Assembly (NCBI GenBank): GCA_027887045.1
Contig: JAPCJH010000002.1
Coordinates: forward strand, 134,723-198,722
Length of the DNA: 64,000 nt
Direction of reading: 5' to 3'
Source of the DNA: Nitrososphaerota archaeon
Lineage (GTDB): Archaea > Thermoproteota > Nitrososphaeria > Nitrososphaerales > Gagatemarchaeaceae
A model generated the notes under the pieces. It was not told the DNA's origin. It was given only the letters and a program-made list of their open reading frames with translations, and searched no databases. Both the position numbers and the translations under genes were made by a program. Every line of letters begins with the position of its first letter. Position 1 is the first letter of the stretch. Positions 28,071 to 30,386 of this stretch are shown here, piece after piece.

Positions 28071-30386
28071 CTAGTTGATCACGGAGACGAACCGGTCGTC
28101 CTTCGAGGCCTTGCTCAGCGGGCCGATTATCGGCGTTTTCTGCCCGCAGACCTTGCAGCGGTTGTGTTTGTCCAAGTTGTAGGCAGTAATGTCGTAGCCG
28201 TTCCTCCCGATTAAGACCCTGCCGCATCCTGGGCAATAAGTACTTTCCAACGGGTGCCCAGGGACGTTACCGATGTAGACGTAGTTCAGCCCCGCCTTCT
28301 TGGCGATCTCGTAGTGTTTCTCGAGCGTTTCAACAGGCGTCCACGGCAAATCCATCATCTTGTAGTCGGGATGGAACCTCAGAAAATGGATCGGGGTGTC
28401 GGGGCCCATGTTGTCGTAGACCCAACGGGAGAGCTTCCCCGCGGTCTCGATGTTGTCTCCCACCTGAGGGACGATTAGGTCTGTTATCTCCACATGGACA
28501 TTCGTCTTGGATTTCGTTTCGAGGAGCGTCTGGTATATCGGGTCAGCGCTGGGAATCCCGATGTACCTCCTGACGAACCCGGTCTCTCCGCTCCCCTTGA
28601 AGTCCACGGTGATGCAATCCAAGAAGCTCTTCATCATGTCCACTGTCTCGGGGGTGTCGAAGCCGTTTGAGACGAATATGTTAAAGATCCCGTTCTCCCT
28701 TGCGATGTTCCCGATGTCCCTCGCGTACTCCATGAAGATTGTCGGTTGGTTGTACGTGTAAGCCAGTCCTTCGCAGCCGTAGGATTTTGCTAGTGCCACC
28801 ACCGCGGGGGGGTCCATGTCGACTCCTTCGACTTTCCTCCGCTGACTGATGTCACTGTTTTGGCAGTTACTCACGGCGAGGAAACTTGCCGTGTAGGAAT
28901 GGTCTCCTTCGACCTCCAAGTTGTAAACATAACCTGAGTAATCCTCGGAATCGATCACCCGAATCGGGACGAGCGTGAAGTCTTCCTCGACGACAAATTT
29001 TGTGGCCGCGACCGTGGAGCTTACATCTTCGGAAACAAGCATTACCCTGGTCATATAGTCGTAGTTCCTTCCTACAATTCTCCCCTCTATCTCGTATTGC
29101 GGCGCATTCTTCGATACATAGAATCTGGGGAGGAGACCAAGACGCGACATTATGTACCATACTCCTAGAGTCAGTTCCTTCGATACCGAAGTCGTTCCAA
29201 ACCATCTCTGGCCCTTTGAGCCGGTGAAGAACCCATCTCCTCGGATGCATGCTCGAAGGAAACTTTCGAGCAAGCTTTTGTCCTGCGCATGAAGGATAGT
29301 CAACGGGACTTTCTTAACATATTTGTTCTCGCCTGCTAGGTTCCTGAGGAACAGCGCAAGCGGTCCGTTCGTAAGCTCCAATCTGATGACGGAACCTTGC
29401 TGGACGCGTCTAGGTGTGAGTCCGAAAATCTTGTTGAGGAGCTTTTCAGTTCTTGCGATGAAATCAGAATCGTGATTGCCAAACGAAAATGCGACGGTCC
29501 AGCTGTTCGGTCGATTCGGTGCCCTTGTCAGGCTCCCCTCCGCACAATAAGTACCTAGGAGCTCGGCAAATTCCTCGTTCAAGTCCAAACTCGCCGGAAT
29601 CCCTTCGCTCCGGGACATACCGAACCTGACCCTACCATCTACGACGGAAACTTTCCAGACTGACTTGCGCTTCGATGGGCGAGCCACCCTCTTGACTTCT
29701 TCCTCGATTATCTGACTTGCAAAAATGTTCGTCGAGACAATCGCATCCTTTGCCCTTGGAATTGCGAGCAGATCGTTTTGCTTCAGTTCGTCCGCCCTTT
29801 TCTTTTTGAGGGTTTTGGTTTGTCCATCGAAAACAAATAATCCGTGATTCGGCGTGCATCTTACCTCCGGAAGATAGTACGGACGGATTCTCAAGAGCTT
29901 ACCAGAATATTCGTGTCTGAACACTTTCAGAACTTTGCCAAAGGCCCCATCCTTACTGAGGACGCGCAAATCGTTCGTTGGGAAGGCGACCTCGTTCGAT
30001 TGTCCTGTTTCTTCGTAGATCTGAGACATCGTTTTGATGCCCTGATCGGTGATTACGGCTGATTCTGGAGCTATACAATAAGAACATAGCCAATTGCAAC
30101 CATTTGTGGCAATTGAGAAGATTTTTGAACCGGGTTTGTAATGCACGACCGGCTTCTTCTCGATCGGGTCGATGTGCCCCGCGATTATCTTCCCGTACAC
30201 GAGTAGGTACAATTTCCCACCAACGACGCCTCTGACCCCGCAGAGCCCCACCTGCCCCTCCCCTATCTGGCACAACCTCGCGCACGCCGTGCACTGGACC
30301 TTCCCGCTCGGCAGGTTCCTGAAGAGCTCCGCCTCCTTCCCGCTCGGCTCGGTGAGACGCGTCGGAACGGAGGACATAGTTGTCAA
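28071..30386 (-). CDS. amrS: AmmeMemoRadiSam-system radical SAM enzyme (AmrS, COG1180-like) interrupted by an in-frame intein
   Basis: N-extein [23 protein letters not shown]...[43 protein letters not shown]-extein [11 protein letters not shown]...[31 protein letters not shown]...[12 protein letters not shown]. Splicing restores [10 protein letters not shown], the radical-SAM CxxxCxxC motif. Confidence 0.8.
   Translation of the reverse strand: [771 protein letters not shown]
28866..30077 (-). other. Intein (404 aa) with LAGLIDADG homing-endonuclease domain, inserted at the third Cys of the CxxxCxxC motif
   Basis: Block A [13 protein letters not shown]. Block B [9 protein letters not shown] (TxxH). 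LAGLIDADG-like [11 protein letters not shown] and [12 protein letters not shown]. Blocks F/[23 protein letters not shown] followed by the +1 Cys. Boundaries were computed codon by codon. Confidence 0.75.

Follow-up and report, generated by a model that had tools for sequence, protein, structure and literature searches.

The question raised by this locus is whether the gene for a radical S-adenosylmethionine (SAM) enzyme can be interrupted by an intein within the very cysteine motif that holds its [4Fe-4S] cluster, and whether such an element still has what it would need to splice and to move. The window, by which we mean the whole stretch of 64,000 nucleotides from a soil-type Nitrososphaerota archaeon (assembly GCA_027887045.1, contig JAPCJH010000002.1, positions 134,723 to 198,722), contains a gene that an earlier note had read as an AmrS-family (AmmeMemoRadiSam) radical SAM enzyme split by a LAGLIDADG intein at the third cysteine of the CxxxCxxC motif. 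Results from profile searches, alignments with homologues and structure prediction support this reading. With a probability of about 90%, the element is considered to be a genuine intein of class 1 that contains a monomeric two-motif LAGLIDADG endonuclease and is inserted in AmrS directly before Cys3. The position (28866-30077) and the length of 404 amino acids (aa) given for the intein in the note are exact, the frame is open, and the curated Pfam and NCBIfam cutoffs for inteins and for LAGLIDADG endonucleases are passed.

Intein boundaries and host enzyme

The precursor is encoded on the reverse strand by a single open reading frame (ORF) of 771 codons that starts with a TTG at 30386, with an alternative ATG at codon 4 (30377); its features are collected in Table 1. 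With a slash marking the splice points, the N-terminal junction reads G-C97-N-W-L-C101-S-Y/C104-I-A-P-E-S and the C-terminal junction reads F-L-A-V-S-N507/C508-Q-N-S-D. The insertion point lies directly before the third Cys of CX3CX2C, and excision would join ...GCNWLCSY to CQNSDISQ.... The precursor motif itself still reads C-x3-C-x2-C, with Cys1 of the intein in place of the third ligand and cysteines at positions -7, -3 and 1. An alternative boundary (CSYC/IAPES...AVSNC/QN) was ruled out, as the intein would then begin with Ile and end with Cys.

The intein alone is matched by Pfam Intein_splicing (PF14890; 69.5 bits, E 3.6e-19, cutoff 35.8), by the NCBIfam models intein_Nterm (TIGR01445; 33.9 bits, cutoff 24.5) and intein_Cterm (TIGR01443; 19.5 bits, cutoff 15.6), and by Pfam LAGLIDADG_3 (PF14528; 31.6 bits, cutoff 22.5). 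The window protein was aligned with 30 homologues bearing the same AmrS allele, and this alignment shows no variation at Cys1, at the Thr and His of block B, at the His of block F, at the terminal Asn or at the +1 Cys. Cys1 and the block-B Thr and His are also invariant in 47 radical-SAM hosts beyond it. The earlier statement that blocks A, B, F and G and two LAGLIDADG motifs are intact holds for the nucleophiles, for block B and for both acidic residues of the endonuclease; it does not extend to position 4 of block F (F:4), which is Asn, or to the penultimate residue, which is Ser. As a whole, the observation is far beyond chance, and no evidence contradicts the identification of the element as an intein.

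Judged from its profile matches, the host gene is a bona fide AmrS-family (TIGR04337, AmmeMemoRadiSam) radical SAM enzyme, and the resemblance of the exteins to AmrS claimed in the note is borne out when they are joined. The conceptual splice product (aa 1-103 + 508-771) matches TIGR04337 with 324.5 bits (E 6.5e-97, cutoff 220) in one unbroken stretch that runs from residues 19-345 to model positions 4-330; the unspliced precursor scores 307.2 bits against the same model and is split into two stretches. A match to PF04055 (57.1 bits) was also obtained, and the CX3CX2C motif (CNWLCSYC) is complete after conceptual splicing. The exteins are 72-78% identical among homologues (N-extein mean 78%) and keep every AmrS hallmark. 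A sequence search of solved structures with the spliced extein gave no match. For annotation purposes, the gene is best treated as a single AmrS that contains an intein, with a mature product of 367 aa.

Structure prediction agrees with this division of the protein. The AlphaFold2 model of the precursor has a mean pLDDT (predicted local distance difference test) of 82.2, with low confidence precisely at both junction loops (residues 94-99 and 506-516), and is uninformative on cofactor binding. Foldseek places the extein part of the model closest to the pyruvate formate-lyase activating enzyme 3c8f (E 1.8e-8) and the intein part closest to TliVMA (7qsu, E 4e-26), followed by PI-PkoII (2cw7), PhoVMA (7qst), PI-PfuI (1dq3) and PI-SceI; the solved endonuclease-containing inteins as a group span E 4e-26 to 1e-16. 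By sequence, the closest solved structure found with phmmer is PI-PkoII (8e-18). The window intein shares with TliVMA and PhoVMA (7qsu, 7qss, 7qst), PI-PkoII, PI-PfuI and PI-SceI (1vde) a Hint domain that is split by a two-motif LAGLIDADG endonuclease. In contrast, sequence identity to these inteins is 13-18%, and their hosts are V-ATPase, DNA polymerase or ribonucleotide reductase. The solved endonuclease-containing archaeal inteins have the canonical penultimate His.

Related inteins and precedents

A search with the whole precursor retrieved more than 300 homologues, and the best 120 are all intein-containing. The organisms named among these 120 are few and are Thaumarchaeota/Nitrososphaerota metagenome-assembled genomes (MAGs). 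Parsing of the junctions reveals two insertion sites inside one 8-residue AmrS motif. Site b, the site occupied in the window, has the form CxY/C[FI]xPET...AVSN/CQN, while site a lies before Cys2 and has the form GCNWL/CHPAGT...VVHN/CxYC. Among the parsed proteins, 66 carry an intein at site b only, 20 at site a only and 36 at both. The same AmrS intein allele is common in public sequence data, being present in at least 66 clusters. Site-b inteins were also found in one Micrarchaeota protein and in two proteins from bacterial MAGs (Syntrophothermus and Anaerolineae); the sequences of P0123 and P0124 are partial.

The inteins at the two sites differ in size and in the nuclease they carry. At site b, full LAGLIDADG inteins of about 400 aa stand beside a class of about 470 aa, internally deleted forms of 264-272 aa and mini-inteins of 171-198 aa. 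At site a the inteins are either mini-inteins of 164-175 aa or 353 aa long with a Vsr-like nuclease domain. In the latter (P0069, intein aa ~98-450 with the nuclease at ~336-403; P0005, P0070, P0081 and others) a Vsr-like PD-(D/E)xK domain matching DUF559 (PF04480)/MTES_1575 (PF18741) takes the place of LAGLIDADG or HNH, which is an unusual endonuclease type for an intein. In the double carriers (P0005, 1113 aa; P0008, P0015, P0029, P0056, P0107) only three extein residues (9 bp) separate the two inteins. Read from these sequences, the two homing sites must overlap. Several site-b relatives appear at different points of decay, with the motif-1 Glu changed to Gly in P0027, the motif-2 Asp changed to Gly in P0006 and deletions to 264-272 aa in P0067 and P0068; P0071 and other relatives are reduced to mini-inteins of 171-198 aa.

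A 2023 survey of 18 Thaumarchaeota genomes reported a single intein, which lacked an endonuclease (PMC10643990). Despite this near-lack of inteins in published surveys of Thaumarchaeota, AmrS in Nitrososphaerota MAGs is a busy intein site at which the full homing cycle is represented.

The earlier note knew of no described intein in the radical-SAM cysteine triad. This part of the note did not hold: the insertion site before Cys3 is already known from a published precedent, from curated models and from many database examples, namely the Pyrococcus abyssi MoaA intein, NCBIfam NF045703 and NF038136, and the AmrS clusters counted above. The window element is in itself unexceptional, a regular representative of a known class, although a fairly divergent one. 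Literature searches found no paper on an intein in AmrS or in a pyruvate formate-lyase activase-like enzyme.

In the P. abyssi MoaA intein, as summarized in two reviews of the work of Callahan et al. 2011 (PMC10663303, PMC3922620), a disulfide between the native N-extein Cys-3 and Cys1 blocks splicing until it is reduced, and the same reviews present this trap as a means of protecting an oxygen-labile enzyme. The MoaA intein appears to occupy radical-SAM Cys3, equivalent to site b, because a Cys at -3 in CX3CX2C fits site b, whereas site a gives -4. The window precursor resembles it in having both a Cys at -3 and the catalytic Cys1 (C101-S-Y-/C104). It differs in the host enzyme, which is annotated as MoaA in P. 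abyssi, and in that redox data exist for MoaA whereas the window intein is known from sequence.

Two NCBIfam models likewise describe curated combinations of radical SAM protein and intein. NF045703 stands for an intein-containing tetraether lipid synthase (Tes) and NF038136 for intein-containing radical SAM proteins of the Rv2578c family. The match of the window protein to NF045703 runs without a break over the N-junction (aa 88-240 to model 140-302); for site-b proteins, the match begins at the first triad Cys (model 149), spans the intein (about 156-611) and extends into the extein that follows, to about 676. These coordinates, as distinct from a reading of a Tes sequence, suggest that the Tes intein lies at the same site as the window intein. 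The host families of both models differ from AmrS, and the window protein scores far below the cutoffs (77 vs 1700 bits), so that only the intein and the motif are common. The P. abyssi 'MoaA' may be a Tes-type enzyme of NF045703, which is only a guess on our part.

The reach of the site beyond AmrS was probed with the intein itself. A phmmer search against 1.84 billion representative proteins returned 4007 matches at E <= 1e-3, with 47 at E <= 1e-30. In the best 150 matches, nearly all readable junctions are at C...C../C or end in ...N/CQN. Among 47 radical-SAM hosts with such junctions, 19 are AmrS (TIGR04337); the others include B12-binding (HpnJ/BchE-like) proteins, PA0069/Rv2578c-family proteins, a tungsten-cofactor maturase-like SPASM protein and activase-like proteins. 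Within the relatives P0136-P0281, some hosts have a CX5CX2C form of the motif, namely P0166 and P0199 (CW[YW]GKCTF/C) and the partial P0269 (GCTF/C). From the junctions and hosts of its relatives, the window intein looks like part of a clade that is specialized for one radical-SAM position and crosses host families. The literature searched holds no description that we could find of this radical-SAM-triad clade.

A clade tied to one cofactor-ligand position in AmrS, B12-dependent, SPASM/twitch and Rv2578c-type proteins would parallel the inteins of P-loops. The inteins of ATPase/P-loop sites described by Novikova et al. 2016 (PMC4760082) are similar in that one short, conserved cofactor-binding motif hosts insertions in many non-orthologous proteins. 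Unlike the window case, the main text of that paper stresses replication and ATPase proteins and does so without radical SAM enzymes. The chief interest of the locus lies in its relatives, which offer two inteins packed in one iron-sulfur (Fe-S) motif, a triad-bound clade and a redox/Fe-S gating of splicing that can be tested.

Homing endonuclease and probable mobility

To set the limits of the endonuclease, the decayed P0067 and four mini-inteins (P0071, P0079, P0084, P0129) were aligned with the window intein. In this alignment the splicing domain comprises intein residues 1 to about 113 and about 373 to 404, and the remainder is the homing-endonuclease and DNA-recognition insert. Given two intact motifs in a conserved domain, the endonuclease is probably functional. 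If so, it would cleave intein-free alleles around TGCAATTGGCTATGTTCTTAT/TGCCAAAACAGTGACATCAGT, and repair would then copy the intein in.

Empty alleles of this kind are plentiful. The spliced extein was used as query in one genome per GTDB species, and the best 80 loci (65-81% identity), which belong to Nitrososphaerales/Thaumarchaeota, Bathyarchaeia and a few others, were scanned at the insertion site. Every one of these 80 species-representative loci has an uninterrupted CxxxCxxCQN, which answers the question put in the earlier note of whether the site is empty in relatives. The predicted splice junction is letter-identical to that of the intein-free loci L028, L042 and L047. At the DNA level, the reconstituted 42-bp intein-less site TGCAATTGGCTATGTTCTTATTGCCAAAACAGTGACATCAGT shares 36/42 bases with the empty allele in L028 and 35/42 in L044. 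The window gene order (AmrS, a 576-aa membrane protein, GcvP1, GcvP2) is kept in 22 of the 80 loci, and the site is empty in all 22.

Relative to homologues, the mean identity of the window intein is 48% vs 78% for its N-extein, and the G+C content at third codon positions (GC3) is 0.572 in the intein vs 0.774 in its exteins. Among the relatives, P0012 and P0020-25 are 90% identical in their exteins and 46-49% identical in their inteins, and P0012 and P0009 are 79% identical in their exteins and 72% identical in their inteins. Such incongruence indicates horizontal turnover of the intein. All stages of a homing cycle were found in relatives: empty alleles, full inteins of ~400 aa, motif-mutated inteins, internally deleted inteins and mini-inteins. 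Viral contigs were scanned for close relatives of the intein and none was found, giving no evidence for a viral vector. Overall, the element appears at the DNA level to be mobile, or to have been so recently.

An alternative is that splicing is intact but the endonuclease is dead, so that the intein would be passed on by vertical descent only, as a passenger that is turning into a mini-intein. The stages of decay seen in P0027, P0006, P0067 and P0068 and in the many mini-inteins would suit this account, as would the distance of the window copy from other inteins, the nearest database intein being just 57% identical, so that no recent homing of this copy is visible. Against it, the acidic residues at both catalytic positions are present, and the full endonuclease region of ~255 residues is unbroken and as conserved as the splicing domain (47.5% vs 48-54% among homologues). 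The predicted fold, modelled with confidence, also resembles that of active PI-type endonucleases. A dead endonuclease thus has an appreciable chance of being correct, but is doubtful.

Proposed splicing mechanism and possible redox control

The proposed pathway follows standard intein chemistry. The gene would be translated as a 771-aa precursor, in which an N-S acyl shift at intein Cys104 would produce a thioester. Next, the +1 Cys508 would attack this thioester in a trans-thioesterification. Finally, Asn507 would cyclize and an S-N shift would ligate the exteins to give the 367-aa enzyme, with Cys508 becoming the third [4Fe-4S] ligand once ligated. The precursor is most likely catalytically inactive until it splices, because the cluster loop and the remainder of the partial TIM barrel lie 404 residues apart. 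The earlier claim that no [4Fe-4S] site can form before splicing is a reasonable inference but is overstated, as the precursor retains C-x3-C-x2-C by way of intein Cys1.

The retention of this string raises an addition to the pathway, namely that splicing is gated by redox state or by Fe-S in a physiologically relevant manner. This proposal is compatible with a genuine, splicing intein and adds a function to it. Either a Cys101 (-3)-Cys104 (1) disulfide formed under oxidation, or Fe-S or another metal bound by Cys97, Cys101 and Cys104, would block the first splicing step, so that the oxygen-labile enzyme would be made only under reducing conditions. The geometry of Cys -3 and Cys1 equals that of the native MoaA redox trap, the full C-x3-C-x2-C string is kept, and disulfides at the catalytic Cys are an accepted basis of redox-sensitive splicing (PMC4031507). 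The clade is also strikingly faithful to a cysteine-rich site in unrelated radical-SAM families. However, the cysteines at -7, -3 and +1 are required by the host enzyme, and they consequently give no sign of selection for a trap; the plentiful empty alleles, mini-inteins and decayed inteins are more easily reconciled with a selfish element than with a regulator that has been retained. We therefore consider physiological gating rather unlikely. For studies of splicing gated by redox state or metal, the site would add a natural system to the one known from MoaA.

A broader proposal would make the radical-SAM triad a superfamily-wide landing pad, with the clade hopping between non-orthologous genes and splicing, in AmrS too, gated by redox or Fe-S. 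Taken as a whole this is unlikely and speculative. If it were true, the ligand cysteines would double as splice-site residues, and oxygen-labile enzymes would carry a built-in oxygen/Fe-S switch.

Several points weaken the case for a splicing, mobile intein in AmrS without contradicting the identification. First, the canonical His at the penultimate position is replaced by Ser or Ala lineage-wide, and F:4 is Asn (VYNLE) lineage-wide instead of Asp; both are atypical. Second, splicing and DNA cleavage are both deduced rather than observed. Third, the GC3 of the intein lies inside the range of the other window ORFs (0.666 +/- 0.051, minimum 0.534). Fourth, the window intein is divergent, at most 57% identical to any other, and no recent transfer is documented for this copy. 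Finally, the AMMECR1 and Memo partner genes are absent among the 40 window ORFs scanned with Pfam, leaving the 'system' context of the host out of view. AMMECR1 and Memo may lie elsewhere in the genome, and this last point concerns the system rather than the enzyme family.

The atypical splicing residues have parallels. The usual residues at F:4 are Asp, then Cys, then Trp (PMC4031507), and splicing by inteins without a penultimate His is documented by Sun et al. 2005 and Chen et al. 2000, as cited in the same paper. Inteins of the Ssp/Npu DnaE type likewise end in a small residue and Asn, followed by a +1 Cys, and lack a penultimate His. Unlike the window intein, these are split mini-inteins in DNA polymerase III, and the likeness is limited to one catalytic position. 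That the insertion is instead a fixed domain that does not splice, or that the host gene is dead, is highly improbable: only the penultimate Ser and the F:4 Asn speak for it, whereas no nucleophile varies and neither does Thr or His of block B, the frame is open over 771 codons, the exteins are clearly constrained with their AmrS hallmarks kept, and the same atypical residues recur in dozens of intact homologues from several radical-SAM families.

Table 1. Features of the intein-containing AmrS gene (positions in the window)
Feature	Position	Strand	Remarks
Whole precursor gene, AmrS-family radical SAM enzyme with one intein	28071..30386	-	Single open frame, stop codon included
N-extein, aa 1-103	30078..30386	-	Carries the N-terminal Cys cluster, DPIEKKP, and Cys97 and Cys101 of the triad
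N-terminal Cys cluster of the N-extein	30240..30293	-	
Triad CNWLCSY then C (Cys97, Cys101, intein Cys1 at aa 104)	30075..30098	-	Columns invariant in 31 homologues
Intein, 404 aa (aa 104-507), class 1	28866..30077	-	CIAPES...FLAVSN; Cys1...Asn404, then +1 Cys
Intein block B, CTPNH (TxxH: Thr178, His181)	29844..29858	-	Thr and His invariant
Homing-endonuclease/DNA-recognition insert, about intein residues 115-370	28968..29735	-	Region missing from mini-intein alleles
LAGLIDADG motif 1	29532..29570	-	Catalytic-position Glu present; Glu in 30/31 homologues (P0027 Gly)
LAGLIDADG motif 2 (IRGDGF)	29226..29261	-	Catalytic-position Asp present; Asp in 30/31 homologues (P0006 Gly)
Intein blocks F and G	28866..28931	-	F:4 Asn (usually Asp), F:13 His (the usual residue), penultimate Ser, terminal Asn507
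C-extein, aa 508-771 and stop	28071..28865	-	Begins with +1 Cys508
C-terminal CPGC...CKVC zinc-ribbon-like cluster of the C-extein	28146..28235	-	

Genomic neighbourhood

Genes near AmrS in the window encode MetRS, GcvP1/P2, an FtsZ/tubulin-like protein, an EamA transporter, and zinc-ribbon and SPFH proteins. A profile built from the intein family detected no second intein in the window. The gene at 26334..28064 (+), which lies tail-to-tail with AmrS, encodes a 576-aa predicted membrane or surface protein with no Pfam match; the neighbourhood of AmrS, this protein, GcvP1 and GcvP2 recurs in 22 related loci, with identities of 37-49%.

A stand-alone Vsr mismatch endonuclease (PF03852, with a weak MTES_1575 match) is encoded at 2036..2593 (+). 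It is convergent and overlapping with a C5 cytosine DNA methylase (PF00145) at 2559..3668 (-), the two forming a classic Dcm/Vsr pair that appears unrelated to the intein.

A tRNA-like element at 35321..35377 (-) scores 29.2 bits with Rfam (gathering score 29) over model positions 9-63 only, leaving the acceptor stem uncovered. Its anticodon loop reads CUUUGGA and it receives no ARAGORN call; it may represent a fragment, or else an archaeal tRNA that contains an intron or is atypical in another way. The zinc-ribbon Pfam matches of the 566-aa ORF at 30442..32142 (-) begin near residue 235 (MFCVKCGAQL...), and the upstream part of this ORF overlaps the SPFH/zinc-ribbon gene at 31455..32597 (-), suggesting that the ORF as called is probably over-extended at its 5' end.

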